64,000 bases of DNA from Myxococcales bacterium. Lineage in GTDB: Bacteria > Myxococcota_A > UBA9042. This document shows positions 12,191 to 52,986 of the stretch, in pieces. Location of the stretch: NCBI GenBank assembly GCA_947491025.1, contig CANLIC010000002.1, forward strand, positions 197,123 through 261,122. The letters are read 5' to 3'. Numbering within the stretch: the stretch's first letter is position 1; each line of letters starts with the position of its first letter. Position numbers and translations under genes: made by a program. Below the pieces are notes generated by a model. It was not told the origin of the DNA, searched no databases, and saw nothing but the letters and a program-made list of their open reading frames with translations.

Positions 12191-14938
12191 TCAAAATGAG
12201 TACGCGCAGCTGCCATTGATGCAGGTATCGGCAGTCGATGGCTGACCGTCGTCGCACTCTTTCGCCGTGTTGCATGCCTTGGTGGCGCAGGTGCGGGTGA
12301 GGAGCAGATCGTCGAGGTAGACGCCCTCGCCGTTGTTGGCGACGCTGTCGACGGTCTGGAAATCGAAGACGAGGTCGATGGTCTTGCCGGCAAAGGCCGA
12401 CAGGTTGAGCTTGACCTCGACCCAATTCTTGAGCTCGAAGCCAAGGGACGCCTTGTCCCAGAGCTTGATGCCGACGCCGCCGACGATGGCCTGAACGGTG
12501 AAGCGGTCGTAGCTGGTGCCCGCTTCGGTGTCCATCCACAACCAGACGCGGACCTGATGGCCCTCGCCCGCCTCGAGCTTGAGGCCCTTCCAGGTCACCT
12601 GGCCGCCCGTGGCGCCGTCGTCGAAGTTGCCCTTGGTCGGATTGCCATAGTAGAGCGCGCCCTTGCCGGTCTTGGCCTGTTTGCCGCTGACCACCTGCCA
12701 CTGGCTGGTCTGGAACTGGCTCGCCAAGACTAGCGGGCCCGTGCTGCCGTCCTCGAAGCCGAGCGACGCCACCTCAGGCACACAGCAACCGGGCTTCTGC
12801 AGCGGCCCGAAGCCGCAGATCCCGGCGAGGCAAGCGTTGTCGGTGCACTCGTCGCCGTCATCGCACTCCGACGGCCCCTGACAGCACTGGCTCTTGTGGC
12901 CGCAGACGTTCTTTTTGCACGTGTCGAGCGTACAGGGCTGGCTGTCATCGCAGTCAGCGGCCGAGATGCAGCAGCTGGCATCGGTCTTGGTCCACTGGCA
13001 GGGCAGGCCGACCGAAGGGCAGGCATCGAGGGTGCAGGGGTTGCTGTCGTCGCAGTCGGCGACCTTGTTGCAGCACGCCGAGCCCGGCTTCTTGATGTGC
13101 AGGCACTTGAGGCCGGAGCAGACGTCCGTCGTGCACGGGTTGCTGTCCTCGCAGTCGGCTGTCTTGGTGCAGCAGTTGGGGATAGGCACGTGATTGCAGG
13201 CGAAGTTGCTGCCACAGCTGTCGAGGGTGCAGGCGTTGTTGTCGTTGCAGAGGGTCGGGAGCTCGCAGTAGAGCTTGGAGGTGACGCTGCTGCAGACGCC
13301 GCCGGCACAGGTCTCAGCGGTGGCGCCGAGGCCGTCGTCACAGTCGACATCAGCCTGGCATGGCAGTGGCGCCTGGCAGCTGGTGATGACGGACAGCGAG
13401 TCGAGCCAGAACTTGCTGCCGGCCCAAACCGTAGCGCCCGGCTTGACCTCAAAGACCAGGCGCACCTCTTGGGTGGCCGGCCGTGCCGCGAAGCCGCGCA
13501 GGTTGATGGTGACTTGGGTCCATCCGACGAAGGGCGGTGCCTGCCACAGGTAGACGCTGCCGAGGCTGGTGTCTGCGCGTAGGCGGAATACATCGCCTGA
13601 GGAGCCACCGCTGAGCTGTCCGCGGTACCAGAAGGTCAGCGTGGGGGCGAGGCCGAGCGGCAGCTGGAGCTTCGGCAAGCGCGCTTCGGCCAGCGGTTGG
13701 CCGCCGGCAGTGGTTGCGCCGGTCACCTGGTAGCGCAGCGATTGTGCGCCCGCCTTGGCCTCATCAGGGCCAAAGGCGCCGATGCTGAAGACGCCGTGCT
13801 TGCTCGGCGCCAAGGTCGGCACAAGCGCATCTCCCGGCTCAAAATCGGTCTCAGCCAGCTGGGGCGTGCAGCAACCACTGCCCGCTTTGGGGCTGTAGGC
13901 GCAGGACGCCCCGTTGCAGCTGGCGCTGGCGCATGTTGCGCCGTCGGCGAGACCACAGTCGCTCGCGTTCTTGCAGCACTGCACCTCATGTCCGCATTGG
14001 CCATTGGCGCAGCGATCGTAGGTACAGATGACACCATCGTCGCACTCAAGGTGCTGCTGGCAGCAGCCAGGGCCCGGCACAAAGGGGTGGCTGCAAAGGC
14101 CGATGGCGGTGGCGCACTTGTCGTTGGTGCAAGGGTTCTCGTCGTCGCAGTCGGCGTCTTTTTGGCAGCAACCGTAGACCGGCAGGTCCTTGCAGGCACC
14201 GCCGACGCAGGCGTGCTGCGTGCAGACGTTCTGGTCCTCGCAATCGGCGACGCTCTCGCAGCAGAGCGCACCTTCGGGCGCCGTGTGCTTGCAGCCGCTC
14301 TGCGGATCGCAGGCATCCACCGTGCAGGTGATGCCGTCGTCGCACGTCAACGGCGGGTGCAGGCAGCCGGCGACAGGGCTGCAGCCGTCAGCGGTGCAGA
14401 GGTCGCCATCGCTGCAGTCGAGCAAGCCGTAGACGCAGCCGATGCCGGCCTGGCAAACGCCCTTGGTGCAGAGGTTGCCGTCTTCGCAATCATTGGTGCC
14501 GTGCGTGCAGCCGCCGACCTGGACGTCGCAGCCATCGACGGTGCACGGATCTTCGTCAGCGCAGTCGACAGGCTCCGAGTAGCAGCCGGTGAGCGGGTCG
14601 CAGCGGTCCTCGGTGCAGGGGTTGCCATCGTCGCAGAAGGCGGGCCCGGCGGCACATTGACCGGTCCAGCGGCTGTCCTTGCCGGCATCCTGTTCACCGG
14701 CGTCGTCGACCTCGCCGGGGTCGACGTCGGCCCCTGGGTCGGCGTCGCCTGGGTCGGCATCGGCACCGGTGCTGACGTCGTTTGCGGCGTCCTTGCTGGC
14801 GTCTTTGGCGGCGTCGGCGCCCGGCTCGGCCTCGCCGCACCCGACGGCAAGCAAGAGCAAGAACGCGAGCGCGCCCGCCCCGGCGGCCCCGGATGGCGTG
14901 CCATTCGCCCCTCCCCGATCCCGGAATCGCAGTGTCAT
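12191..14938 (-). CDS. Large secreted lipoprotein made of about 20 tandem Myxococcus-type cysteine-rich repeats (CxxDxDCxDxNxCTxDxC), with a C-terminal non-repeat beta-rich region.
   Basis: Signal and lipobox 'LAFLLLLAVGCGE'. The unit 'C.D.DC.D.NPCT.D.C' recurs, for example 'CDDGNPCTEDRCD', 'CEDGNLCTKGVCQ' and 'CDDSNPCTLDAC'. Confidence 0.8.
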   Translation of the reverse strand: MTLRFRDRGGANGTPSGAAGAGALAFLLLLAVGCGEAEPGADAAKDASKDAANDVSTGADADPGDADPGADVDPGEVDDAGEQDAGKDSRWTGQCAAGPAFCDDGNPCTEDRCDPLTGCYSEPVDCADEDPCTVDGCDVQVGGCTHGTNDCEDGNLCTKGVCQAGIGCVYGLLDCSDGDLCTADGCSPVAGCLHPPLTCDDGITCTVDACDPQSGCKHTAPEGALCCESVADCEDQNVCTQHACVGGACKDLPVYGCCQKDADCDDENPCTNDKCATAIGLCSHPFVPGPGCCQQHLECDDGVICTYDRCANGQCGHEVQCCKNASDCGLADGATCASASCNGASCAYSPKAGSGCCTPQLAETDFEPGDALVPTLAPSKHGVFSIGAFGPDEAKAGAQSLRYQVTGATTAGGQPLAEARLPKLQLPLGLAPTLTFWYRGQLSGGSSGDVFRLRADTSLGSVYLWQAPPFVGWTQVTINLRGFAARPATQEVRLVFEVKPGATVWAGSKFWLDSLSVITSCQAPLPCQADVDCDDGLGATAETCAGGVCSSVTSKLYCELPTLCNDNNACTLDSCGSNFACNHVPIPNCCTKTADCEDSNPCTTDVCSGLKCLHIKKPGSACCNKVADCDDSNPCTLDACPSVGLPCQWTKTDASCCISAADCDDSQPCTLDTCKKNVCGHKSQCCQGPSECDDGDECTDNACLAGICGFGPLQKPGCCVPEVASLGFEDGSTGPLVLASQFQTSQWQVVSGKQAKTGKGALYYGNPTKGNFDDGATGGQVTWKGLKLEAGEGHQVRVWLWMDTEAGTSYDRFTVQAIVGGVGIKLWDKASLGFELKNWVEVKLNLSAFAGKTIDLVFDFQTVDSVANNGEGVYLDDLLLTRTCATKACNTAKECDDGQPSTADTCINGSCAYSF

Positions 14939-15031: not shown

Positions 15032-16684
15032 CTAGCGAAACGCACCTGCGGCCCAGAGCGCCGCCACGCGCGCCGGCGAGGGATCGGCGACCCAGCCTGC
15101 GCCGGCGCGCCGTGCGCCTTCGGCCAAGGCCTCGAGGGTCTCGGCACGGGCGGCGACGTCGGCGCGGATGAGCCCGAGCACCGTATCGGCGTCTTCGCCG
15201 TCGGACGCGAACGTCGACAGGTCGGGCGGCACCTCGTCGACGCTGACCAGGACCACGCGATGGCCAGCGCCGCGCAACGCAGCAACGCCGCGCCAGAGCC
15301 GCGACAGGTGGCCGCGCATCCCGCGAAAGTCGCTGACGAGCAGCAAGGCGAAGGGCCCCTTCTTCGCCCTGGCCGCGACCTCAAGACCAGCGATCAGCCC
15401 CTCGACACGCTCGGCGGGCGACAGCGGCGCGCGGTACGGCAAGGCGATGTCGGCGGCGCGACAGTAGCGGCGCAGAATCGAGAGGTCGGCGCGTGGCGAG
15501 GGTTCTGGGCCGCGCTGGGCGGGGTGACGCTCGCGCTCGGGCAGCCGGGCCAGGGCCGCCATGACGGTCCGCTGCCGCCACGCCACCCACGACGCCGCGT
15601 CCGTCGCCGCCGGCAGCCGAACGCGCTCGACCGCGCCGAGGTGATCGGCCACCAGCTGCAGCAGGGCGTCTTCGGGCAGCGGCGTCAACCGCTCGGCGAC
15701 GACACGGCGCACGTCGAGCAAGGCGCGGTCGCACTGCCGCAGGGCCACCACGCCCTCATAGACGGGGCTGCGATCGACCACCTCACCGTCAACGAGGGCG
15801 AGGCCAAGCGGCAGGTTCTCGCGCGCGGCGGCCTCGGCCAGCGAGTGGCAGAGGTCGAGGCCGAGATCCAGCGCAGCCCGGCCCAAGACGCCATCGCGCA
15901 TGGTGGCGCCGCAGTCGAGGACCGCGAAGATCGCCCGCGCGCGCTCATGTTCAAAGACGCGGCTCATCAAGCGCCCGCGGCGCGCGCTGGCCTTCCAGGC
16001 GATGTGCTTGAAGGGATCGCCCGGCAGGTGTTCGCGCAGCTCGCGCAGCTCGTCGCCCTGCCCCGCCACCCGATCCGGCCGAGTGCCGCCGGCGCTCCGC
16101 AGCACCTTTCGACGCGTCTCGGCCAGCTGGCGGGCGTCCAGGCGCCAGCTGCGCGGCAGCACCGCGACCTCATATGGACAGGGCAGAAAGATGTCGGCCC
16201 GCACGAGGCCAGCGGCGTCCGTCGCCTCGCAGCGGACGCCGAAGACGCGGTGAATCGCTGCGGCCGCCGGGCGCGCCTCGACCTTGACGACTGCGGCGTA
16301 GGCGTGGATCGGCCGCAGCGCCGAGCCGTCGAAGCGGAGCTCCATGCCATCCGTGGCGACGAACGCGATGGGGCGAACGACGACGCCGTCGAGGTCGGGC
16401 GCGACGTCCACGACGAGCTCGAGCGCTACCGGCTGGCCGACGCGGTGGCTGCGCAGCTCGAGGGCGCGGGTGCTGGCGCGGGCGACCGGCGCGCGGAGCT
16501 GGGCGCGCAGCCCGAGCGGCGGCACGAAAGGGCGCAGGTGGCTGCGCAGGCGCCGAAGCTCCAAAAAGACCCCGCCCGCTGCGCCCGCCGCGATCAGCAC
16601 CGCCGCCGGCTGGCCGAGCAGCCAGCCTGCGCCGGCCAAGGCGGCCACTGCGACGAGGAGCCGTTCGCCGCGCGCCGCGAGCAC
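15032..16684 (-). CDS. DUF58-family protein (vWA-like, MoxR-associated).
   Basis: Motif 'GDPFKHIAWKASARRGRLMSRVFEHE' matches the DUF58 'GDDxRxIDWKAxAR' signature. It lies immediately downstream of MoxR with a 1-nt gap. Confidence 0.8.
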   Translation of the reverse strand: MLAARGERLLVAVAALAGAGWLLGQPAAVLIAAGAAGGVFLELRRLRSHLRPFVPPLGLRAQLRAPVARASTRALELRSHRVGQPVALELVVDVAPDLDGVVVRPIAFVATDGMELRFDGSALRPIHAYAAVVKVEARPAAAAIHRVFGVRCEATDAAGLVRADIFLPCPYEVAVLPRSWRLDARQLAETRRKVLRSAGGTRPDRVAGQGDELRELREHLPGDPFKHIAWKASARRGRLMSRVFEHERARAIFAVLDCGATMRDGVLGRAALDLGLDLCHSLAEAAARENLPLGLALVDGEVVDRSPVYEGVVALRQCDRALLDVRRVVAERLTPLPEDALLQLVADHLGAVERVRLPAATDAASWVAWRQRTVMAALARLPERERHPAQRGPEPSPRADLSILRRYCRAADIALPYRAPLSPAERVEGLIAGLEVAARAKKGPFALLLVSDFRGMRGHLSRLWRGVAALRGAGHRVVLVSVDEVPPDLSTFASDGEDADTVLGLIRADVAARAETLEALAEGARRAGAGWVADPSPARVAALWAAGAFR

Positions 16685-16685
16685 C

Positions 16686-17707
<1,022 letters not shown>

Positions 17708-17711
<4 letters not shown>

Positions 17712-19486
17712 CGAGGCTCCTCTGCCGGCCCGGCTCCGTGACCCGCCGCAGCGACCGCTGATGGCGCAAGCCTACCGCCTTCGACCGCTATGGCGCCAGC
17801 CACCTCGCGGATCGCTGGCGAGGAGCGCTCGCCGCGGCCATGGAGCCCGGCGGGTCTGGTGTGACTCAGCACGTGCTCGGCCCACTCGATTTCAGCGGCG
17901 AGGCTGGCAAACCGGCCGCGGTCGATGGGTTCGGCGGCCAACGCCACCTCGCCGAAGGCGGCGACGACCTCGTCGAGGCGGCGCGCCGTCGCGCGGGTAA
18001 TGCCACCTTGGGCACGCAGGCGCTCGATCAGCGGCGGTAGACGGGCCAGCGAGGCGTCGGGGGCCGGCTCCTCTGTGGCGTCTGCAGCGCCTCCCCCCGG
18101 GCGCAAAGGCGCAGGGCGCCGAACGCCACTGGGGTCGTCACCCTCGAGCTCGCGCGCGGCAGCGTGGAGGCGTCGGGCAAGGCGCTGCGCCAGCAGCCGC
18201 GCCGGCTGCCGAAAGTCGGCCTCGGGCCGCATCATCCACGCTTCGATGGTCTCCTGCAGGCGCCCCCGGGCGGGTGCGCCCCCAGCGCTCGGCGGCAGGC
18301 GTGGCGGCGGCAGCCGCCCGAAGCGCCACAGGGGCAGGAGCAGCGCGGCCAATGTCAGCGCGCCCCCGAGCCAACGCGCGGCGGGTGTCCGCAGGGCCGC
18401 CGCGAGGCCGTCCAGGGCCGCGGCCAGCGCCTGCAGCGCGCCCGGCGGGCGGCCGCTCGGCCTGAGATCGGGGGCCGGCCGAAAGACGCCGGACACCTGG
18501 GCCAGGTTCGGCAGCAGGGCGACCTGGCAGGGCTCGCCGCGGAAGCAGCCCCACCGCATCAGGTTGGCCGCGAACTGCTTGTTGCCGTGAAAGGTCCGCA
18601 GCATGCCGTCGATGAGCACGCTGGAATCGGCGAGCGCGAGGACCCGGCCGCGACCGAGCTGCACTTCGCTGAGGAACGACCGCACGCCATCCTCGTAGCG
18701 GCCATGCACATGGCGGGCGATCGTGCCACGCTCATGGCGCGTGGCGGCGCCCGCAGGCTCGGTATTGGCAGCGGCCTGACTGGTGATCGCCGCGGGGTGG
18801 TTGAGCACCAGCTCGTGGACCTGATAGCCGAGCACCCCGCCGAGCGCCGCGCCGGGAAACCGCAGCAGCCCTGGCCGGCCCTCCACGAGCCCGGGCGCCG
18901 CGCCGGGCCTGTCGTGGAGCGCGAGGCCGAACGGCTCCATCCAGCTTGCGCCGGCACGAAAATCGTCGGCGATGATCAGCCTGCCGCCCGCGCGGACAAA
19001 GGCCAAAAGCTGTTGTCGTCCGTCCGTTCCGAGGACGACGGTGGGCGCCACGACGACCAAAATCTCGTCGCCGCGCAAGGACGCAAAATCCAGCGTGCGA
19101 CGCACCTGGAGCTTGACCTCCGCCTCCTCGGCCGTGGTCCGCAAGTAGCGCAGCGCGTTCCATCCCGGACGATCCGGGTCGAAGTCGACGCCCGTCGCGT
19201 CCGGCAGCGATCCCTCCGCCCAATCCATTGCGGCCGTGGCTTGGCCCGCCGCCGCTCCGGCCTCCGCCGCTGCGCGCGAGACCGCCACTCCCGTCGTCGC
19301 GGCCTTCGCAGGCGGCAGCGGCCCCGCCCAGGCGGCCGTGAGCGCCGAGGATCCCAGCGCCGCGGACGCCGCCACCGCGAGGCCGAGCGCGACCCGCACA
19401 GCCGCGCCCCCCCGAGCGCCAGGCCCAACCTTCGGGCACTTGACCTCAAGGCGCGCGCGCCCGCGCCAGGCGGCCTGGATGCTCAC
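17708..19486 (-). CDS. MoxR-operon accessory protein with a signal peptide, a periplasmic DUF4350-like domain, one TM helix and a cytoplasmic tail.
   Basis: There is a 4-nt overlap with moxR. N-terminal signal 'VALGLAVAASAALGSSA'. The 'LLAFVRAGGRLIIADDF' region resembles DUF4350/GldG-like domains that accompany MoxR-DUF58. TM helix 'LGGALTLAALLLPLW'. The family assignment is tentative. Confidence 0.55.
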
Positions 19487-41675: not shown

Positions 41676-42533
41676 ATGGTGCATCGCCCACTGAGCCTGC
41701 AGCAGGCCCTGGAGCTCAAGCGCGCGCTCGGCGCCCGCGGCGTGCCCGTGGCGGGCGGCACCGACCTCATCGTCGGCATCCGCAAGGGCCGCCCTGCCCC
41801 GGCCGAGATGATCGACCTGAGTTTGGTTCCTGATCTCGATGGCATCGAGCGCGTCGGCGACCAGCTGCGAGTCGGTGCCCGGGTCAGCCACGCCCGCCTT
41901 GAGGTGATGGATCTCGGCGCCCTGGCCGCGGCCTGCGAGACGGTCGGCGGCCCGCAGATCCGCAACCTCGGCACCATCGGCGGCCAGCTCGGCACGGCGT
42001 CGCCCGCTGGCGACGTCTCGGTGGCGCTGGTCGCCCTCGACGCCACGGTCGAGCTCGCGTCGGTGGACGGCCGGCGGACGCTGCCGCTCTGCGACTTCTT
42101 CGTCGGGCCAGGCCGAACCGTGCTGCGCCCCGACGAGCTGGTGCTGGCGGTGACGGTCCCGCTGAATCGGCGGTCGGCCTTCTACAAGATCGGCAAGCGC
42201 GAGGCGGTGGCGATCTCGCTGCTCATGGCGGCCGTGTCGGTCGATGCCCATGGCCACGTCGCCATCGGCATTGGCTGCGCGGCGCCTGTGCCCATGCGGG
42301 CGCGCGACGCAGAAGCGTCCCTGCGAACGCACGGCTGGAGCGCCGAGAGCATCGACGCCGCGGCGGCGCTGGTGAGCGCGGAAGTGCGCCCGATCAGCGA
42401 TCACCGGGGCAGCGCCGACTATCGGCGGGCCATGGCCGGCGCGGTGGTGCGGCGGCTCTTGACGCAGCTCTGGCGCGAGGGCGCGCCAGCCGCGTCGCGA
42501 ATCGGCGCCGACGGCGCGAGGGGGACAGCATGA
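41676..42533 (+). CDS. Xanthine-dehydrogenase-family molybdoenzyme, FAD-binding subunit (CoxM/XdhB-like).
   Basis: 'LSLQQALELKRALGARGVPVAGGTDLIVGIRKGR' matches the FAD_binding_5 domain. It shares a 4-nt overlap with the next gene. Confidence 0.85.
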   Translation: MVHRPLSLQQALELKRALGARGVPVAGGTDLIVGIRKGRPAPAEMIDLSLVPDLDGIERVGDQLRVGARVSHARLEVMDLGALAAACETVGGPQIRNLGTIGGQLGTASPAGDVSVALVALDATVELASVDGRRTLPLCDFFVGPGRTVLRPDELVLAVTVPLNRRSAFYKIGKREAVAISLLMAAVSVDAHGHVAIGIGCAAPVPMRARDAEASLRTHGWSAESIDAAAALVSAEVRPISDHRGSADYRRAMAGAVVRRLLTQLWREGAPAASRIGADGARGTA

Positions 42534-43099
42534 AGCTGGTCGAGGACAACGGCGGCGGCGACGGCGCGCAGCGGGCAGCGCCCGGCGGGACCCCCTGGCA
42601 CTGCTCGCTCAACGGCCGCGAGGTGGCCACCGCCATCGATCCGCGCGAGACGCTCTACGACACGCTGCGCGAGCGCCTGCGCCTGACCGGTACCAAGGGT
42701 GCCTGCCTCGAAGGCGAGTGCGGCAGCTGCACGGTGCTGCTCGATGGCCTGCCGGTGACGAGCTGCCTGGTGCTGACCGTGCAAGCGGACGGGCGCCAGG
42801 TGACGACGATCGAGGGCCTGGCAGACGGTCCGAACCTGTCGATCTTGCAGGATGAGTTCGTGCGCGCTGGCGCGGTGCAGTGCGGCTACTGCACGCCGGG
42901 CCTCTTGGTCGCCGCGACGGCCCTGCTGCGTGACAATCCGACGCCGACCGCCGATCAGGTGCGCCGTGGGCTCGAGGGCAACCTCTGCCGCTGCACCGGC
43001 TACATGAAGATTGTCGACGCGGTGCTGGCGGCGGCGACGCGCCAGGGCGCGGCGGCGGGCGCCAGAAGGCCGCTGTCCGCGGTGGGAGGTGGCTCGTGA
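42530..43099 (+). CDS. Xanthine-dehydrogenase-family molybdoenzyme, [2Fe-2S] subunit (CoxS-like).
   Basis: 'CLEGECGSCTVLLDG' and 'CGYCTPG ... CRCTGY' give the two 2Fe-2S cluster motifs. Confidence 0.9.
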   Translation: MKLVEDNGGGDGAQRAAPGGTPWHCSLNGREVATAIDPRETLYDTLRERLRLTGTKGACLEGECGSCTVLLDGLPVTSCLVLTVQADGRQVTTIEGLADGPNLSILQDEFVRAGAVQCGYCTPGLLVAATALLRDNPTPTADQVRRGLEGNLCRCTGYMKIVDAVLAAATRQGAAAGARRPLSAVGGGS

Positions 43100-45417
43100 A
43101 CGCGCCAGTGAGGCCGCCACATGCCATCGGCCGCTCCGTGCTGCGCGCCGACGTGCGCGACAAGGTGACGGGCGAGGCGCGCTACGGCGGCGATTTGCGG
43201 GGGCCGGAGACGCTGAGCGCCGCGGTGGTCCGCAGCCCGCACCCGCACGCCCGGATCCTCGGCGTCGACGCCGCCGCCGCGCGCGCCCTGCCCGGGGTGG
43301 TGGCGGTTTTCGGCCGCGACGACATCGATGGCACCAACCGTCATGGCCTGATCAAGCGCGACCATCCGGTGTTCTGCGACGAGGTGGCGCGCTACCTCGG
43401 CGACGCTGTCGCGCTGGTGGTGGCGACCTCGCCGGAGGCCGCCGAGCACGCCTGCAAAGCCGTACGCGTCGACTACGAGGCGCTGCCGGTGCTCGGGAGC
43501 ATGGACGAGGCCATGGCGCCAGGCGCGCCCGCGATCTTCCCGACCGGCAACGTGCTGAGCCAACAGCTGATCCGCAAGGGCGACGCCGACGCGGCGCTTG
43601 CGACGGCCGACGCGATCGTGCGCTGCCGCTTCAAGATGCGCGGCGTCGACCACGCCTTCCTCGACGTAGAGGCTGGCTACGCCGAGCCCGAGGGCGACGG
43701 TGTCGTCATCTGCGCGAGCGGACAGTGGATCCACGAGGAGCGGCGGCTGGTCGCGCTGGCCATCGGCATCCCTGTCGAGCGGGTCCGCATCGTCCAGCCT
43801 GCGACTGGCGGCGCATTCGGCGGTCGCGAGGACATCTCAATTCAGATCTACCTCGGCCTCGCCGCGCTCAAGCTCGGCCAGCCCGTGCGCATCCAGTACA
43901 CGCGCGAAGAGTCGATGGTTGCGCGCCACAAGCGCCACCCCATCGAGGTCGACTACACGCTCGGCGCCAAGGCCGACGGCACCTTTGTCGCCGCCAAGGT
44001 CATGATTCGCTCGGACGAAGGGGCCTACGCCTCGACCGGACCGGCGGTGCTCCGCAAGGCGGTGAGCCACTGCACGGGGCCTTACCGCGTGCCCAACATC
44101 CACTGCGATGGCGTGGCGATCTTCACCAACACCTGCCCAACCGGGGCGATGCGGGGCTTTGGCGCCTGCCAGCTGGCCATCGCCTACGAGGGTGCGGTCG
44201 AGGCGATGGCGCGCGAGCTCGGCATCGACGTGGTGACCCTCAAACGCAAGAACCTGCTGCAGGACGGCGATCGACTGACCACCAACCAGGTCGTCAACGT
44301 GGCGAGCGGCGGCGAGGTCCTCGAGGCCGCGCTGACGAAGTTCGGCTGGGAGTCGCGCTCCCGCAGCGCGCCGGCGCCGCATTTGAGGCGCGGCTTTGGT
44401 GTCAGCAGCATCTGCTTCGGCCTCGGCTACGGCGACGGCTACCCCGATCGCTCGTTTGCGCGGGTCCGGATCGCCGAAGATGGGGTCGTCGAAGTGCTCT
44501 CGTCCGGCGTCGACGTCGGTCAGGGCCTGCACGGTCTGCTCGGCCAAATTGCCGCCGAGGTGCTCGGCGTCGAGCCCGGGGACGTGCGCGTCATCGGCCA
44601 CGACACCGGCACCACGCCCGAGTCTGGCTCGTCCTCGGCGACGCGGCAGACGGTGTTCACCGGCAATGCGGTCAAGCTCGCCGCCTCCGAGGTGCATCGG
44701 CAGCTCATGGACGCCGCCGCCATCACCCTCGGCCTGCATTGGGACGACCTCGTGATGGCCGATGGCTGCGTCGTCAGCGCCCACGGCCCAGAGGTGAAAT
44801 TGCCGCTGGCCTTCGTGGTGCGGGCGGCGCGCGAGCGGGGCTATGCGCTCGATCATACGGCGCTCTACCAGCCGCGCACGGTTCCGGGCGGAGCGTCCGA
44901 CGGTCTCTCGCCGCGGGCGTTCTTGACCTACATGTTCGGCAGCCACGTCGCCGAGGTGCTGGTCGACATCGAGACCGGTGAGGTAAAGGTCCAGCGCATC
45001 GTCGCCGCCCACGACGTCGGGATGGCGATCAACCCACGCGAGGTGGCCGGCCAGATCGAGGGCGGCGTAGCGCAAGGGCTCGGCATGGCGCTCATGGAGG
45101 AGATCGTCACCCGCGAGGGCAAGATCCTCAACGCGAGCTTCACCGACTACATCATTCCGACGATCGTCGATGTGCCGCCGATCGAGGCCGTCATCGTCGA
45201 GCGACCCGACATCGAGGGTCCCTTTGGCGCCCGCGGCGTCGGCGAGCCGCCCCTGATCGGGACGGTGCCGGCGATCCTGGCCGCGATCGCAGACGCCATC
45301 GGCCTGCCGGTCCGCGAGACGCCGGCGACCTCCGAGCGAGTCTGGCGGCTGTTGCAGACCTCTCCGGCCTGGAACGAGGCGCCGCAGTCCGAACCGGCAA
45401 GCGCCGGTCAGCGCTGA
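43096..45417 (+). CDS. Xanthine-dehydrogenase-family molybdoenzyme, molybdopterin-binding large subunit (CoxL/aldehyde-oxidase-like).
   Basis: At 773 aa it has the a/b hammerhead and Moco-binding domain layout ('GGAFGGRE', 'GQGLHG'). A 4-nt overlap links it to the FeS subunit. Confidence 0.9.
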   Translation: MNAPVRPPHAIGRSVLRADVRDKVTGEARYGGDLRGPETLSAAVVRSPHPHARILGVDAAAARALPGVVAVFGRDDIDGTNRHGLIKRDHPVFCDEVARYLGDAVALVVATSPEAAEHACKAVRVDYEALPVLGSMDEAMAPGAPAIFPTGNVLSQQLIRKGDADAALATADAIVRCRFKMRGVDHAFLDVEAGYAEPEGDGVVICASGQWIHEERRLVALAIGIPVERVRIVQPATGGAFGGREDISIQIYLGLAALKLGQPVRIQYTREESMVARHKRHPIEVDYTLGAKADGTFVAAKVMIRSDEGAYASTGPAVLRKAVSHCTGPYRVPNIHCDGVAIFTNTCPTGAMRGFGACQLAIAYEGAVEAMARELGIDVVTLKRKNLLQDGDRLTTNQVVNVASGGEVLEAALTKFGWESRSRSAPAPHLRRGFGVSSICFGLGYGDGYPDRSFARVRIAEDGVVEVLSSGVDVGQGLHGLLGQIAAEVLGVEPGDVRVIGHDTGTTPESGSSSATRQTVFTGNAVKLAASEVHRQLMDAAAITLGLHWDDLVMADGCVVSAHGPEVKLPLAFVVRAARERGYALDHTALYQPRTVPGGASDGLSPRAFLTYMFGSHVAEVLVDIETGEVKVQRIVAAHDVGMAINPREVAGQIEGGVAQGLGMALMEEIVTREGKILNASFTDYIIPTIVDVPPIEAVIVERPDIEGPFGARGVGEPPLIGTVPAILAAIADAIGLPVRETPATSERVWRLLQTSPAWNEAPQSEPASAGQR

Positions 45418-45418
45418 G

Positions 45419-45844
45419 GTGGCGCTCGCGTTCGCGCTGACGCTGCTCGTCGGCCTCGCCATCGTCGTCCAGGGCGGGATCAACGCCCGCCTCGGCCAGC
45501 AACACAGCCTGTGGCTGCTGGTGACCATCGGCAACGCCGTGGCGGCGCTGGGCTCCGGGGCGGCATGGCTCTGGCTGCGCCGCAGCGGCCCGATGGTGGC
45601 GGAGCTGCAGCGGGTGCCCTGGCTGGTTTTGGTGCCGAGCGTGGCGGGCATCGCGATCGTGGCCGGGATGCCGGCAGCGATCGCGCGGGTCGGCGTCGGC
45701 CGGGCCGTGGTCCTTGTCATCGCGGTGCAGCTGGTCGCAGGGTTGCTCTGGGATCGCTTCGGTGTCGGCGGGGCCTTGAGCGCCCAGCGGCTCGCCGGCG
45801 CGGCGCTGGTCATGCTCGGGAGCTGGCTCGTCGTGCGCGGCTGA
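45419..45844 (+). CDS. Small DMT-superfamily membrane protein (YdcZ/DUF606-like), 4 TM.
   Basis: Of 141 aa, almost all are hydrophobic helices. It starts 2 nt after the molybdoenzyme large-subunit stop. Confidence 0.5.
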   Translation: MALAFALTLLVGLAIVVQGGINARLGQQHSLWLLVTIGNAVAALGSGAAWLWLRRSGPMVAELQRVPWLVLVPSVAGIAIVAGMPAAIARVGVGRAVVLVIAVQLVAGLLWDRFGVGGALSAQRLAGAALVMLGSWLVVRG

Positions 45845-46035
45845 GGCGGCACGGTGCTCGGGACGGTCAGGAGCTGGCTCGTCGCCGGGGCTCCGGCGGG
45901 GCGTCGCGGGGTCCGCGGCCGGCCCTTCCGCTCCATCCAACGCCCTGACCTGCCGCGGGCGCTACCCCAGCGCCGCGACCTGTGCTATCCGCCCCCGGCC
46001 GCGCGCACCACCGCGCGCCGCCAGAGGCAGTTCGC

Positions 46036-46995
46036 ATGACGCAGGTCACCTTCGATCTCCAAGCCACGGCGGCCGCAGAGGCGCCAGAGGACGAGCTGAC
46101 CGCTCGCCGCGCCCAGGAACTTTGCGCGCACCTGCTGATTCACCGCTGGCTGCCCAAGCGCAGCACCCGCGACCTGATGATCGACGACGGCTTGCGCCGC
46201 AGCGTCGATCGCCGCTTGGCGGGCGTCGGCCTTCAGCTCATCGATTCGTACACCTCCAACTACTTCGCGGTACGCCTGCTGCCGGCGATCGAGGGCGACG
46301 TCCGCTTTGACTGGTCGACCAACGCCCGACTGCCGCGCGGCGCGGTGGCGCTGCTGGTCATCCTGTGGACGCGCCTGGTGCTGCCACGGCGGGTCGCCAG
46401 CGATGAGGCCCGACGCGCGCGCGACGATGCGCAGCAGCGCGCCATCCAGCGCGGCGAAGATCCGGCGCTCGCCGATGCGGCGCAGGTGCAGGGCGACCGG
46501 CTGCCCGCGCCCACCGTCGCCCGGACCGCGCTCTACGCGGAGTTCGGGCACCGCTTCGGCAAGATCGCGTTTGCCAGGTACCTCTCGCAGCTCAAGAGCG
46601 CCGGCCTCGTGCTCGAGAATCGGGCCGGCCTGCTGCGCGAGGGGCCCCTGCTCGACGTGCTGGTCGACGGCGTCACGATGGCGCGCAAGCTGCGCGACTC
46701 GGTGCTCTGGGACCTGCTGGAGCGCGACGGCGGCGCGGCGCATGAGCCCGAGATCCCGGGCCTGACTCCAACGGCCGCCCCTGCGGCACCTGCCGGCAGC
46801 GCCTTCGCGGTGGCCGCCACAGGAGGGGCTTCGAGCGACGCATTGGGCGCCGCCGCGGGCGCCTCAAGGAGCGAAGCCGGCAGCGCCGCGGCGTCCGACG
46901 CCGACGACGCGCCGCCAGCAGACGGCGAAGCGCAAGCCCAAGCCGAACTCGAGGCCATCGACGATGACTTTGACGACTGGGCGGACGACGCCTAG
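46036..46995 (+). CDS. Hypothetical protein with two winged-helix-like segments and a strongly acidic C-terminal tail; possible KITE-like (MksE/MukE/ScpB-like) partner of the downstream SMC-family ATPase.
   Basis: Start at the ATG at 46036, since the track's GTG at 45982 adds an Arg/His-rich leader. wHTH-like segments 'FARYLSQLKSAGLVLENRAGLLREGPLLDVL' and 'ELCAHLLIHRWLPKRSTRDLMIDDGLRRSVDRRLAGVGLQLID'. The tail '...EAQAQAELEAIDDDFDDWADDA' is acidic. Its stop lies 23 nt before the ATPase gene. Confidence 0.5.
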   Translation: MTQVTFDLQATAAAEAPEDELTARRAQELCAHLLIHRWLPKRSTRDLMIDDGLRRSVDRRLAGVGLQLIDSYTSNYFAVRLLPAIEGDVRFDWSTNARLPRGAVALLVILWTRLVLPRRVASDEARRARDDAQQRAIQRGEDPALADAAQVQGDRLPAPTVARTALYAEFGHRFGKIAFARYLSQLKSAGLVLENRAGLLREGPLLDVLVDGVTMARKLRDSVLWDLLERDGGAAHEPEIPGLTPTAAPAAPAGSAFAVAATGGASSDALGAAAGASRSEAGSAAASDADDAPPADGEAQAQAELEAIDDDFDDWADDA

Positions 46996-47018
46996 GGCGC
47001 CAAGGAGTAGGCCGATTC

Positions 47019-49859
47019 ATGTTTACGTTCAAGGCCATCGAGCTGCTGAACTGGGACTGGTGGGCGCACATCCGCCTGCCGCTCGACGACGACGTCGTGC
47101 TGGTCGCCGGCCCCAACGGCTCGGGCAAGACGACGTTCCTCGACGCCTTGCGGGTGCTGCTCAACGCCACGCGCCTGTCGACCTCGCGCAAGCTGCCGCA
47201 ATACCTGCGCGAAGACACCGGCGTCGCCGTCGTCAAGGCCGTCGTCGACAACCGCCACCGCCGCGCCGTCGGCCGCCGGCCCTTCGCCCACCTCGGCCTC
47301 TTCGGCGACGAGGCGACGCTGGCCTGCGTCATGGAACGGCGCGCCGGGGCCTGGGAGCGCAAGTACCTGATCTTGGATGGCGATCCGCCCATCGACGCTG
47401 TCCGCACGGCGACGCCGGCTTGGAAGCCGATGGAGTTCTCGCGCGAGCTCGAGGCCGCCGGTGTGCCGCGGACGCTGCTGCGCATCCTCGCCCTCGAACA
47501 GGGCGAGACGCACAAGCTCGCCGAACGCAGCCCCGAGCAACTGCTGGAGTATGTGCTGGAGATGCAGGGCGACAAGGCCGCCCTGGAGCGCTACGACGAG
47601 GCGCGCAGCAGCTACTTGCAGAGCCAGCGCGATCTCTCCGACTTTGAAGAGAAGCTTGGCACGGTGCGGCTGCACGTCGACGGCCTACGCAAGGACGCTG
47701 AGGCCTATCAGCGCTACACGGAGCTGGTCGAGGCCGAGCGTGAAGTGCGCGAGGAGCGGCTGCCAGCGGCCCGCTGCGCCGCGCTGCGCCTGCAAGTCCA
47801 GGCCGCGCAAGAGGATGTCGACCGCGCGCGCCGCTCTGCCGCCGAGGCGGATGGCGTACTCGGCAGCTTCGACCGCGAGAGCGCCGAGCTCAAAGCGGCC
47901 GCCGCCGACATCCGCCACGAGGTCGAGCGCCGCAAGGGCTTGTACCAGCAGCTGATCTCCGCCAAGGAGCGCCTCGACGGCGAGGCGCGCGACCTGCGCC
48001 GCTGGGCGACCGAGGTGGCCGAGACCGGCGCTGCACGCGGCGACGTCGACGTCGTGGCGCTCACCGCGGAGCGCGAGCGGCTGCTCGAGTCCGAGGCGGC
48101 GCTGCGGGCCGAGCTCAACGGCCTCATCGGCCAGATCAACCGGCTACGCGGCGAACGCGAGACCCTCGACAGCGGAAGCCAGCGGCCGCCGCCGGACTGG
48201 GTCGAGCGCATGCAACGCGAGCTGCGCAGCCGCGACATCGCCGCCGTGCTGGTCGCCGACACCATCGAGATCGCCGACGAGCACTGGCACGTCGCCGTCG
48301 AGTCGGTGCTCGGCCGCGAACGCTTCACCATCCTGGTCGACTCCAAGGACACGGCCGCTGCGCGCAAGATCGCGCAGCAGCAGCGCTACCGTTGCTACAT
48401 CTCCGACCTGCAACGCGGCAGCGGCAAGCCGACGACGGTGCGCTCGCGGCCCGGCTCGGCGCTGTCGGTGGTGCGCCTGCGCGATGACCGCGTACCTGAA
48501 GCGATTTTGCGCATCCTCGACAGTGTGCAGCTGGTCGAGAGCGTCGACGACGGCCTCAAGCTCGGCCGCGGCGAGACCAGCATCACGCCCGACGGTTACC
48601 GCCAGGACGCCCGCGGCGGCATCTACGTCGGCCAGACCGAGCTCTATTGCGGCGCCGGCGCTGGCAGCCACCGCAAGGGCCGCATCGACGACGAGCTCGC
48701 CGAGCTGCGCGGTCGCCGCGACACCCTGCAGCGCAGCTTGGAGCCCTCGCAGCAGCGGTTGCGCGGCATCGATGAGGCGCTGGCGGCGGCCAAGGCCCGC
48801 GAGCGCTTGCTGGGCCGCGCCGGCGACATCGACACGCTGCAGGCCCGCATCGACGCCCTCGACGCCGAGCGGCGGGCGGCGAGCGAGCGTCTGATGGCCG
48901 TGCTGCAGGAGGTCGACGACCACAACCGCGAGCTGGTCGCCAAGGAGCGCCGGCTCTCTCTGCTCGAGTACCGCCACCGCGAGGCCCAGATCGAGCGCGA
49001 TCGCGGCCGGGTGTCGATGGCCGGCGCCGAGAGCCGCCGCGACCGCCTGCAGATCGACCTGCAGGACGCCGAGGCGCGGGTGCCCGAGCGCCTGCGCCAC
49101 CCGGCGGCGATGGCGCTGCTCGAGCCGGAGGTTGTGCTCATCGAGCGCCAGGCCGCGCTCCGGCAGCGGATGGCCGCTTGGACCGGCCCGCGCGACGGCC
49201 GCGCCGTAGCCCTCTGGCAGCGCGCGCACTCCGAGCTGGTCGAGTCCGAGCGCTCGATGGCCCTGCGCCGGCGCGAGCTCGACGCCAGCACAGAGGAGCT
49301 CGCGCTCGCCCGCCGCGCCTATGTCCGCGTCGTCGAAGAGACCATTCGGCGCTACCGCCGCAACGTGCTGCGCCTGGGCGAGCTCTGTCGCGTCGACGTC
49401 AAGGTGGCGGTGCCGGGCGCCGAGGCGCTGCGCGGCGACGCCGAGGGCCTGGTTGGCCGTGTCGGGCTAGAGGTCAAGGTCGGCTTTGACGGCAAGCGAC
49501 CGGTGGCGGTGCATGACCCCGAGCTCTCGGGCGGCCAGCGGGTGGTGTCGTCGCTGATCCTGCTGATGGCGCTGACGATGAGCGATGAGGGTGATACGGC
49601 GGGCTTTTTCATCCTCGATGAGCCCTTCGCCCACCTCTCGGTCGAGCGCATCGACGAGGTGGCGCGCTTTCTGCTGGTGACGCGGGCGCAGTTCCTCATC
49701 ACCACGCCGACCACGCACAACCTCCTGGTCTACAACCCGGCCGGTCTGACGCTGAATCTGCGCAAGAAGCCGGCGCAGCAGCGTTTTGCGCCGGTGCCGA
49801 CCTTCCTGCGCCGCGAACGCGAGCTGCCGACCGCGGCGGGCCCCGCGGCGCCGACCTAG
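47019..49859 (+). CDS. MukB/MksB-like SMC-family ATPase (946 aa).
   Basis: The N-terminal head 'FKAIELLNWDWWAHIRLPLDDDVVLVAGPNGSGKTTFLDAL' parallels MukB '[38 protein letters not shown]'. About 600 aa of heptad-rich coiled coil follow. The C-terminal head 'LSGGQRVVSSLILLMALT ... FFILDEPFAHLSVERI ... QFLITTPT' parallels MukB 'LSTGEAIGTGMSILVMVV ... LLFLDEAARLDARSI ... QLIIAAPE'. An AAGGAG RBS lies 8 nt upstream. Confidence 0.8.
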   Translation: MFTFKAIELLNWDWWAHIRLPLDDDVVLVAGPNGSGKTTFLDALRVLLNATRLSTSRKLPQYLREDTGVAVVKAVVDNRHRRAVGRRPFAHLGLFGDEATLACVMERRAGAWERKYLILDGDPPIDAVRTATPAWKPMEFSRELEAAGVPRTLLRILALEQGETHKLAERSPEQLLEYVLEMQGDKAALERYDEARSSYLQSQRDLSDFEEKLGTVRLHVDGLRKDAEAYQRYTELVEAEREVREERLPAARCAALRLQVQAAQEDVDRARRSAAEADGVLGSFDRESAELKAAAADIRHEVERRKGLYQQLISAKERLDGEARDLRRWATEVAETGAARGDVDVVALTAERERLLESEAALRAELNGLIGQINRLRGERETLDSGSQRPPPDWVERMQRELRSRDIAAVLVADTIEIADEHWHVAVESVLGRERFTILVDSKDTAAARKIAQQQRYRCYISDLQRGSGKPTTVRSRPGSALSVVRLRDDRVPEAILRILDSVQLVESVDDGLKLGRGETSITPDGYRQDARGGIYVGQTELYCGAGAGSHRKGRIDDELAELRGRRDTLQRSLEPSQQRLRGIDEALAAAKARERLLGRAGDIDTLQARIDALDAERRAASERLMAVLQEVDDHNRELVAKERRLSLLEYRHREAQIERDRGRVSMAGAESRRDRLQIDLQDAEARVPERLRHPAAMALLEPEVVLIERQAALRQRMAAWTGPRDGRAVALWQRAHSELVESERSMALRRRELDASTEELALARRAYVRVVEETIRRYRRNVLRLGELCRVDVKVAVPGAEALRGDAEGLVGRVGLEVKVGFDGKRPVAVHDPELSGGQRVVSSLILLMALTMSDEGDTAGFFILDEPFAHLSVERIDEVARFLLVTRAQFLITTPTTHNLLVYNPAGLTLNLRKKPAQQRFAPVPTFLRRERELPTAAGPAAPT

Positions 49860-49989
49860 CGGCGGCCTTGGTCGGGGTGTCGAGGCCCCGCTGGGCGCCG
49901 CGCCGATCGTCGTTTCCCGATGCAATTTTCCCGCCCACGCGACATCTTGCAGGGACGCATGCGGCCAAGTGCCGCCGAGGGAGCACGCC

Positions 49990-51024
49990 ATGGTTTGGGG
50001 ACCCACCAACCGGCCGCAGCCGGGACAGCAACAGCAAGGCCCGCAGACCGGCCCCCACGCCCCCGGCGGCGGTGGACCGGCGCAAACGCCCCAGGCCCCG
50101 GCGGCTCCCGGCGGCGGCGCGCTGAGCAATCCGCTCTTCTCGGGCGATCACGTCCTGGAGCAAGTCGCCAAGGGCAACGGCACCTTGCGCAAGGGCAGCC
50201 GTGGCCCCGCCGTGCGCGCTCTACAGACCTACCTGAGCAGCGTAGGCCTCGGCTCGATGCTCGGCCGCGCTGGCCCGGACGGCGACTATGGCACCGGCAC
50301 CGTGAACGCGGTCAAGGCGTGGCAGAAGGCCAAGGGCCTCGGCGACGACGGCGTGGTCGGCGCCGACACCCTGGCGCGCATGGACAAAGACACCGCGCAG
50401 GTACAGGCGCCGCAGCCGACGACCCAGAACGCCGCCAACACGTCGGCGCCGAGCGCCGGCGCGCCGGGCAGCCGCAACGGCGGGTTGCCGGCCGACTTCC
50501 AGAAGATGTGGGACGCCCACCCGCACAACTACCTGGCAGACAGCAGCCAGAACATCGACAGCGCCAAGCTGCAAGAGCAGCAGGGCTGGAGTCCCGACCA
50601 GTACTCCAACACCTGCGCCATTCGCCTCTCGATCATGTGGAACCAGCTCGGCGGCGGGTATCGGCTCACGCCAGAGAAGGCCAAGGCCGCCGGCCTCGAT
50701 CCGGGCCGCTTGCCCTACTCGCGCAAGACCGGCTGGTACTACATCCTCTCGGCCAAAGAGATGTGGATGTACATGGAGAAGCACATGGGCAAGCCGCATG
50801 CCCAGTGGCCGGCGAACGGCAAGCGCTTCAAGGACGGGGCCGCGTTCGACGAGGAGTTCCGCTCCAAGATCGAGCCCGAGATCGCCGGCCGCAAGGGCGT
50901 CGTGGCCTTCGACAAGATCTTCGGCTACTCGGGCACCGGCCACGTCGACATCTTCAACGGCACGCAGCTGTCCGACGCCGCGAGCTGGTACCCCTGCCAG
51001 TCGCTCAAGGTCTGGTACATCTAG
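49990..51024 (+). CDS. Peptidoglycan-binding domain (PG_binding_1) fused to a Tae4-family (papain-like Cys/His) gamma-D-glutamyl-mDAP amidase domain; no signal peptide.
   Basis: PG_binding_1: 'LRKGSRGPAVRALQTYLSSVGL ... DGDYGTGTVNAVKAWQKAKGLGDDGVVGADTLARM'. Tae4-like catalytic motifs 'NTCAIRLSIMWN' (compare Tae4 'NACPIRMSYVLN') and 'GTGHVDIFNGT' (compare 'RGHVTLWNGS'). The N-terminus 'MVWGPTNRPQPGQQQQGPQTGP...' is Gln/Pro/Gly-rich and low complexity. Start trimmed to the ATG at 49990. Confidence 0.75.
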   Translation: MVWGPTNRPQPGQQQQGPQTGPHAPGGGGPAQTPQAPAAPGGGALSNPLFSGDHVLEQVAKGNGTLRKGSRGPAVRALQTYLSSVGLGSMLGRAGPDGDYGTGTVNAVKAWQKAKGLGDDGVVGADTLARMDKDTAQVQAPQPTTQNAANTSAPSAGAPGSRNGGLPADFQKMWDAHPHNYLADSSQNIDSAKLQEQQGWSPDQYSNTCAIRLSIMWNQLGGGYRLTPEKAKAAGLDPGRLPYSRKTGWYYILSAKEMWMYMEKHMGKPHAQWPANGKRFKDGAAFDEEFRSKIEPEIAGRKGVVAFDKIFGYSGTGHVDIFNGTQLSDAASWYPCQSLKVWYI

Positions 51025-51330
51025 CCCCCGGAATCGCATCTTCGGCCGCGCGGCGCCTGCGCCGGGGCTGGGAGGCGCTGAGCGCCAGGCTCTAACGTTG
51101 CCCTGCGCCGCGCTGGCGACGGGCGGACGGCAAGCGCCTCCGCGACGAAGCCAGGCACGCCCGGCGGCTGCGCATCGGCTCTGCCTTCGCGCCCGCGCAC
51201 GACCTGGGCGACGCCTTGTCGACGCGGCAAAGACGTCGCCGGGGCGCCCGCGCCATTGCCAGCGCCCGAGGACCGCGCCAGCATGCCGGCGCGCGCCCTG
51301 CGCCTGTTGCCGGGCCGCTGAGGAGCCGCC

Positions 51331-52986
<1,656 letters not shown>

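Follow-up and report, generated by a model that had tools for sequence, protein, structure and literature searches.

Why does the gene for a cell-wall amidase that carries no export signal stand directly behind an SMC-like ATPase gene on the chromosome of a Myxococcales bacterium? The gene lies in a 64,000-nucleotide stretch of contig CANLIC010000002.1 (assembly GCA_947491025.1, positions 197,123 to 261,122), hereafter the window, and its product combines an N-terminal peptidoglycan-binding domain (PG_binding_1) with a C-terminal amidase domain of the Tae4 type. Tae4-type amidases are known as small type VI secretion system (T6SS) cargo toxins, accompanied by Tai4/Rap immunity proteins. An earlier interpretation of the letters alone (the sequence-only reading) had suggested that the amidase might serve the SMC-family module as its effector arm, or else be left over from a mobile element by which this module was delivered. 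We found that the two genes are neighbors only through a rearrangement in one lineage, and we propose that the amidase is most likely, with a probability of roughly 0.55, an exported anti-bacterial wall-degrading enzyme that would leave the cell by a non-Sec route and serve predation or competition.

Domains, fold and active site of the amidase

Profile searches confirmed both domains named in the sequence-only reading, each above its curated Pfam cut-off: PG_binding_1 at residues 71–131 (57.9 bits against a cut-off of 23, E = 1.2e-15) and Tae4 (PF14113) at residues 205–329 (51.4 bits against a cut-off of 27, E = 1.5e-13). A conserved PGGGALxNPLFSGDHVLE helix precedes the PG_binding_1 bundle, and the conserved N-terminal helix of the amidase domain, FxxMWDAHPHN, falls outside the Pfam envelope. 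An AlphaFold2 model built on 81 family sequences reached a mean predicted local distance difference test score (pLDDT) of 87, with residues 1–45 and ~140–165 disordered. When the model was compared with the PDB using Foldseek, ranks 1–11 were all Tae4/Ssp1 structures (E = 2.7e-8 to 3e-5; target-normalised template-modelling (TM) score 0.65–0.75), followed by peptidoglycan-binding domains of endolysins, spore-cortex lytic enzymes and L,D-transpeptidases. The peptidoglycan-binding region matched the corresponding domains of an L,D-transpeptidase, phiKZ gp144, SleB and SleC.

The catalytic triad of Serratia Ssp1 consists of Cys50, His133 and Asp135, and in Enterobacter cloacae Tae4 the role of this Asp is taken by Asp139 (PMC3852654). 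The family profile aligned NTCAIRLS of the amidase with NTCAIRVS of Agrobacterium tumefaciens Tae4 and NTCAVRMS of Ssp1, and GTGHVDIF with GGGHIDLV and GGHIDLI. Cys209 was read as the catalytic Cys because the entry for the Ssp1 C50A mutant marks the aligned residue as the nucleophile; His318 aligned with His133 and Asp320 with Asp135 of Ssp1. All three residues were invariant in the 23-sequence family alignment A1, so the Cys and His signatures that had been picked out by eye (NTCAIRLS and GHVDIFNG) are indeed those of a Tae4 active site. A further acidic residue, Asp329, may match Asp139 of the E. cloacae enzyme, judging from spacing and not from structural superposition. Sequence, fold and active site therefore all place the C-terminal domain in the Tae4 family. 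Cleavage of the gamma-D-glutamyl-meso-diaminopimelate (mDAP) bond is its predicted activity, well supported by homology.

No signal peptide or hydrophobic segment was present anywhere in the protein (best 19-residue Kyte-Doolittle mean, 0.82). A signal hidden behind an alternative upstream start was also looked for and not found: the in-frame extension to position 49786 is Arg-rich, has no h-region and overlaps the end of the SMC-like gene. The lack of a Sec/Tat signal noted earlier thus holds, as does the description of the leader as Gln/Pro/Gly-rich and of low complexity, with Gly, Pro and Gln accounting for 64% of the first 45 residues. Among the PG_binding_1-bearing homologues in alignment A2, no signal peptide was found. 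They all begin with MVWGP, the start common to the orthologues, or with MPTPQ, followed by a Gln/Pro/Gly/Asn-rich stretch and then the PGGGALxNPLFSGDHVLE helix; the hydrophobic N-terminal extension of P0039 is probably a mis-called start. Two short relatives in A2 that consist of Tae4 only (P0045 and P0118) have Sec-like hydrophobic N-termini, which indicates an extracytoplasmic site of action for this Tae4 subfamily.

Independence from the SMC-like module

The SMC-like gene and the amidase gene lie on the same strand with a 130-nt gap between them, and the adjacency is kept in five related genomes. Such an arrangement would suit an effector arm, in which the ATPase would sense foreign DNA and the amidase would lyse the cell in an abortive infection. 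However, this explanation is largely refuted by the genomic distribution of the two genes, and we consider it highly improbable.

Members of the ~930-aa SMC-like family occur in Myxococcota, Lentisphaeria, Planctomycetota and Burkholderiales. Those of Myxococcota are encoded as a two-gene unit together with a partner of 250–340 aa (62% and 48% identical to the 337-aa protein of the window), and in relatives at 58–100% SMC identity this unit keeps the same place in the core genome, behind infC-rpmI-rplT-IHF and a MerR-type gene. In the relatives whose SMC-like proteins are 65% and 58% identical, the SMC-like gene is followed by a gene on the opposite strand (MopE-like, TatD) and there is no amidase; more distant modules of Myxococcota and Roseateles also lack it. 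The SMC-like gene was upstream in only 5 of 31 distinct PG_binding_1-type amidase loci, namely those of the window's clade (clade A; 66–100% amidase identity). Orthologues at 52–61% amidase identity are never beside the module and have other housekeeping contexts, and in two metagenome-assembled genomes (MAGs) that carry both genes these are ~1,000 locus tags apart (EXR79_11695 versus EXR79_16975; DCQ06_08725 versus DCQ06_13975). Because the module occurs without the amidase and amidase orthologues occur away from the module, we concluded that the adjacency is a lineage-specific rearrangement with no functional tie. Neither earlier suggestion is supported by this comparison.

Further observations also speak against an effector arm. 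Without a holin, of which the window shows none, a leaderless amidase could not get to the wall; PADLOC gave no match for the amidase or for the 337-aa partner; and a conserved G+C-rich hairpin directly follows the stop codon of the SMC-like gene. The GGGG...CCCC core of this hairpin is invariant and its outer stem differs among the five clade-A loci. Its minimum free energy is −25 to −31 kcal/mol with z-scores of 0 to −3.3, it has no U-tract, and it was not called by the terminator scan; it gives a weak hint that the SMC-like and amidase genes may belong to separate transcription units.

The label MksB-like, given to the ATPase in the sequence-only reading, is loosely right: PADLOC matched the protein to JetC, but mainly in the coiled coil, and the JetD-like neighbor was a weak match to the last gene in a distant relative from Burkholderiales (Roseateles), the only one of its kind. 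Distant relatives have three to four genes (421, 249 and 930 aa in L068; 439, 236, 938 and 390 aa in Roseateles). The family looks like a divergent Mks/Wadjet-like lineage whose nuclease has been lost in Myxococcota (window, L067, L068 and L069). Nearness to an SMC/Wadjet-like gene does not indicate a defence effector in this case.

Distribution, inheritance and sister proteins

A search of 5.8 billion proteins yielded ~45 clusters with the PG_binding_1 and Tae4 layout, and all taxon-bearing source names of these clusters were Myxococcales, Myxococcota or Deltaproteobacteria MAGs. When one genome per species was scanned, 57 loci were obtained, and almost all of them bore the labels Myxococcota, Myxococcales, Bradymonadia, Kofleriaceae or unclassified proteobacterial MAGs. 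The family is thus confined to uncultured Myxococcota. Its architecture is present in databases; we found no description of it in the literature, and nothing relevant on Tae4 in myxobacteria. With the leader and peptidoglycan-binding module alone as the query, a word-indexed search (residues 1–139) returned three fragments only, and an exhaustive search (residues 1–140) returned 10,641 matches dominated by multi-repeat PG_binding_1 proteins.

The identities of the Tae4 and SMC-like proteins track each other in the pairs compared (91/95, 75/82, 68/78 and 66/78%, and 56/57% and 54/58% in the EXR79 and DCQ06 MAGs, respectively), suggesting that the amidase is vertically inherited. The gene is under purifying selection: the ratio of nonsynonymous to synonymous rates (dN/dS) was 0.13 between the window and its 91%-identical orthologue L009 and 0.14 between L011 and L012, the estimate being limited to these two closest pairs since an extreme bias in third-position G+C compresses dS. 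The linker is the least constrained part, with dN/dS near 1 in more distant pairs.

The core-chromosome setting, the apparently vertical inheritance and the housekeeping neighbors would also be expected of a housekeeping peptidoglycan enzyme, either a cytoplasmic gamma-D-Glu-mDAP amidase of muropeptide recycling or a wall-remodelling enzyme serving an envelope-spanning machine. In three loci from related MAGs (L016, L022 and L027; ~9800–14300), the amidase gene lies between dnaJ and T2SSE/T2SSF (PilB/PilC-like) genes, directly upstream of the latter; a wall hydrolase that serves the assembly of a pilus or secretion machine is conceivable for this layout. We regard wall remodelling as a live rival and the housekeeping explanation as a whole as rather unlikely. 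A PG_binding_1 domain has no obvious use on soluble cytoplasmic muropeptides, remodelling enzymes for envelope machines normally carry signal peptides or lipoboxes, and restriction to one lineage is unusual for a basic recycling step. In addition, the same Tae4 subfamily is fused in sister proteins to a toxin marker, as follows.

In the sister proteins the amidase domain is 45–69% identical to residues 166–344, and the N-termini differ. Some have a short unique leader, and many have DUF4157 (eCIS_core), a marker of toxins of extracellular contractile injection systems (eCIS) (PMC8213781). Six Myxococcota loci carry a DUF4157-Tae4 gene followed by an AAA+ ATPase gene of ~660–860 aa (L041, L044, L046, L051, L057 and L058; ~10000–12600 in each). 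No sheath, tube or baseplate gene was found within ~5 kb of these sister loci, only the AAA+ ATPase.

Surroundings of the gene

The window is a piece of core chromosome, with gyrB, sdhA/B, malate dehydrogenase, rplT, IHF, class I fumarase, a MoxR cluster and a Ser/Thr kinase. No T6SS, phage, holin, eCIS or WG-repeat gene was found in its 64 kb, and no T6SS, eCIS, phage or holin family in the Pfam-annotated 10-kb flanks of seven orthologues, whose neighbors are housekeeping genes (such as those for GTP cyclohydrolase, deformylase, DnaJ, RNase III and TatA). In particular, Hcp, VgrG, PAAR and TssB/C were absent from both sets, and the amidase itself had no match to PF13699 (DUF4157/eCIS_core). 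A Tai4/Rap-type immunity gene was also absent, the 130-nt upstream and 306-nt downstream spacers containing no coding open reading frame (ORF). The observation that T6SS and Tai4-like genes are missing nearby therefore stands, and a T6SS or prophage context was encountered in none of the seven orthologues. As a system, the amidase does not form a Tae4-Tai4 pair of a T6SS, because T6SS linkage and a Tai4-type gene were both looked for locally and not found.

One variant of the exported-enzyme explanation is that the amidase is a canonical T6SS cargo effector whose secretion system and Tai4-type immunity protein are encoded elsewhere in the genome. Its membership of the Tae4 family would agree with this, as T6SS effectors have no signal peptides, and at least one T6SS effector structure (4nso) shares the PG_binding_1 domain. 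We judge it unlikely, however, given the lack of T6SS genes in the 64-kb window and in the 10-kb flanks of the seven orthologues, and the partner, where there is one, is a WG-repeat protein instead of an adjacent Tai4-like protein.

A domesticated endolysin or autolysin is similarly unlikely, although it is a live rival. According to this explanation, the enzyme would be held in check within the cytoplasm, a task that in many genomes would fall to the WG-repeat partner, until membrane damage or a holin-like factor frees it to lyse the producer during development or for the release of vesicles, DNA or particles. The order of an N-terminal PG_binding_1 domain and a C-terminal catalytic domain without a signal is that of modular Gram-negative phage endolysins, and the peptidoglycan-binding domain matches phiKZ gp144 and other endolysins. 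On the other hand, no phage, holin or lysis-cassette gene lies near the gene in the window or in the seven orthologue contexts. Among 50,697 phage genomes, only the peptidoglycan-binding part (~residues 51–133) was matched (116 records), and no place covered 25% of the query; IMG/VR gave three weak Tae4-like matches (26–27% identity). Furthermore, the catalytic domain is far closer to T6SS Tae4 (TM 0.75) than to phage CHAP proteins (TM 0.33 against viral predicted structures).

A recurrent WG-repeat partner gene

A gene for a WG-repeat protein (PF14903; E down to 6e-85, 5–7 repeats in ~300 aa) was identified directly 3' of the amidase gene in half (13) of the 26 PG_binding_1-type loci whose downstream side could be read for 1 kb or more, and a shorter contig provided a fourteenth amidase-WG locus. 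The two genes are separated by 4–219 nt or overlap by a few bases; examples are L004 (11047–12123), L006 (11121–12038) and L013 (11015–12046), with 11 further loci. The pair stands behind at least five unrelated upstream contexts, including GTP cyclohydrolase I, ACT-deformylase, radical SAM and aminotransferase genes, and the same partner follows two amidases with other N-termini (L039 and L040). No WG gene was found beside the amidase or in the searched sequence of the window and its clade (the 64-kb window for this locus), and ten further loci, among them the three with T2SSE/T2SSF genes, have neither WG nor SMC neighbors.

The WG-repeat gene is a candidate inhibitor or immunity partner. No publication that connects WG repeats with Tae4 or with immunity was found, and the recurrent partnership with a Tae4-type amidase appears unreported. 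A lipoprotein-type signal is present in 5 of the 14 WG proteins; most of them look cytoplasmic, which would suit the intracellular inhibitor of the autolysin explanation.

Proposed role

We favor the exported anti-bacterial enzyme on four grounds: members of the catalytic family are otherwise known as toxins that act between bacteria; sister proteins of the same subfamily carry an eCIS toxin marker or Sec signals; a peptidoglycan-binding domain makes sense only outside the cytoplasm; and a partner gene in such tight linkage is what effector-inhibitor pairs typically show. Both the export and the target are what we infer from these features. In the proposed mechanism, the protein would leave the cell through a T6SS or another contact-dependent or vesicle pathway. 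Behind the disordered Gly/Pro/Gln-rich N-terminus, the PG_binding_1 domain would anchor it to murein, and the flexible linker would join this domain to the Tae4-type cysteine amidase. Peptidoglycan of the mDAP type would then be attacked from the periplasmic side of the target cell, where Cys209, His318 and Asp320 would cut the gamma-D-glutamyl-mDAP bond of the stem peptide. According to the same explanation, the clade of the window has had the gene relocated, without its WG partner, to the spot after the conserved SMC-like two-gene module.

Several observations weigh against this proposal. No export machinery (T6SS, eCIS or phage genes) was found in the window or within 10 kb of the seven orthologues. 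The housekeeping setting and vertical inheritance also fit a housekeeping or autolytic wall enzyme. The protein has 344 aa and two domains, whereas the single-domain Tae4/Ssp1 effectors, which are loaded through Hcp, have ~160–176 residues. In 9 of the 14 WG partners, there is no room for a signal, as the frame opens only a few codons behind the stop of the amidase gene, which is not expected of an immunity protein in the periplasm. Finally, half of the loci, the window included, have no adjacent WG gene, so the partner is not obligatory, at least in cis.

A more specific version of the exported-enzyme proposal is speculative, and we think it improbable: the amidase and the WG-repeat protein would form an undescribed effector-inhibitor pair, which a predatory lineage of Myxococcota would inherit vertically as a core weapon. 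Its export would proceed without a T6SS, for example by a Tad-like/Kil apparatus, a needle-less predation apparatus of the type III secretion system type or outer-membrane vesicles, with the disordered N-terminus (MVWGP..., Gly/Pro/Gln-rich) serving as an uncleaved secretion signal; the window's clade would have become uncoupled from the inhibitor. If such a pair exists, the amidase would be a candidate lytic enzyme for predation in uncultured Myxococcota, and proof of an effector-inhibitor system would give WG-repeat proteins (PF14903) their first tested role.

Gene features and other neighbors

The features of the locus are listed in Table 1. The ORF from the ATG at 49990 to the stop codon ending at 51024 agrees exactly with the sequence-only reading, and an identical metagenomic contig carries a public gene call, made independently, for the same product. 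The calculated mass of the two-domain protein is 36.6 kDa. A purine-rich stretch at the Shine-Dalgarno position is common to the five clade-A loci. Consensus scans of 49700–51500 for promoters and terminators found nothing; a sigma-54-like promoter in a conserved GCATC-TGCA stretch was considered and rejected by eye, as there is no GG at the right spacing.

Table 1 Positions of the amidase gene, its parts and the preceding SMC-like unit in the window.
Feature	Position	Strand	Basis or remark
SMC-like unit: 946-aa SMC-like ATPase and 337-aa partner	45982..49859	+	
G+C-rich hairpin directly after the SMC-like stop codon	49859..49901	+	Same position in L001, L009, L011 and L012
Shine-Dalgarno-like GAGGGAG	49977..49983	+	6 nt 5' of the ATG; read from the sequence
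Complete coding sequence of the PG_binding_1 and Tae4-type amidase	49990..51024	+	344 aa, stop included; ORF list, Pfam, public gene call, dN/dS
Gly/Pro/Gln-rich N-terminal segment, residues 1–45, predicted disordered	49990..50124	+	Begins with conserved MVWGP; pLDDT 45–62; composition, hydropathy
Peptidoglycan-binding domain, residues 46–135 (PG_binding_1 helical bundle)	50125..50394	+	Pfam, pLDDT 84–97, structure matches
Pro/Ala/Gln-rich flexible linker, residues 136–165	50395..50484	+	pLDDT ~50; length varies across alignment A1
Tae4-family papain-like cysteine amidase domain, residues 166–344	50485..51021	+	Pfam PF14113, Foldseek, invariant columns
Cys209 codon TGC, predicted catalytic nucleophile	50614..50616	+	Aligned with Ssp1 Cys50; invariant in 81 sequences
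His318-Val-Asp320 codons, predicted catalytic His and Asp at H+2	50941..50949	+	Aligned with GGHIDL of Ssp1 and A. tumefaciens Tae4
Asp329 codon (H+11)	50974..50976	+	At least 90% conserved in alignment A2

Three other neighborhoods of the window were recorded. Between the MerR-type gene and the SMC-like unit, positions 41676–45844 (+) hold a xanthine-dehydrogenase/CO-dehydrogenase-like set of three genes (FAD, 2Fe-2S and molybdopterin subunits) and a YdcZ-type exporter, an insertion that is missing in the 75%-identical relative L001. The 915-aa protein encoded at 12191–14938 (−) combines Dictyostelium-type CTDC repeats (E = 4e-30) with an InhA-like MAM domain, which is unusual in a bacterium. 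The cluster of a MoxR AAA+ ATPase, DUF58 and DUF4350 at 15032–19486 (−) looks like a MoxR-vWA-type system.

Comparison with known systems

The amidase shares with the Tae4 effectors of Salmonella, Enterobacter and Agrobacterium, and with Ssp1 and Ssp2 of Serratia, the PF14113 family, the papain-like (NlpC/P60-CHAP type) fold and the lack of a signal peptide, together with the NTCA(I/V)R nucleophile motif, the G-H-(I/V)-D motif and a Cys-His-Asp(H+2) triad as in Ssp1. Unlike them, it is only ~20% identical to the solved members, owes its greater length to an extra disordered segment, a PG_binding_1 domain and a linker, and stands among housekeeping neighbors, with a WG-repeat partner, where there is any, instead of a T6SS cluster or a Tai4/Rap gene.

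Modular Gram-negative phage endolysins such as phiKZ gp144 have the same order of a wall-binding module before a catalytic module and likewise no signal peptide, and the peptidoglycan-binding domain of gp144 is detectably similar (3bkh, E = 2.7e-6). However, the catalytic module of the present protein is a Tae4-type amidase and not a lytic transglycosylase or lysozyme, and a prophage or holin context is missing; the resemblance is one of layout only. The remark in the sequence-only reading that this layout is typical of endolysins or delivered toxins was fair.

A T6SS effector structure, 4nso, which we take to be the VgrG3-type effector of Vibrio cholerae, also combines peptidoglycan-binding and wall-degrading domains without a leader, and it matched the peptidoglycan-binding region of the amidase. 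In that system, unlike here, the enzyme is fused to a VgrG spike, has lysozyme-like chemistry and is encoded in a T6SS cluster with an immunity gene.

The DUF4157 (eCIS_core)-Tae4 fusions of Myxococcota have the closest sister Tae4 domain, belong to the same phylum and are leaderless as well. They differ in that their N-terminus is an HExxH-containing eCIS domain and not PG_binding_1, and in that an AAA+ ATPase gene, and not a WG gene, follows in the six loci mentioned above. Compared with the small T6SS cargo toxins, the PG_binding_1-Tae4 proteins present a Tae4-type catalytic domain, unlinked to a T6SS, in a different package, with a wall-binding domain, a disordered leader and positions in the core genome.

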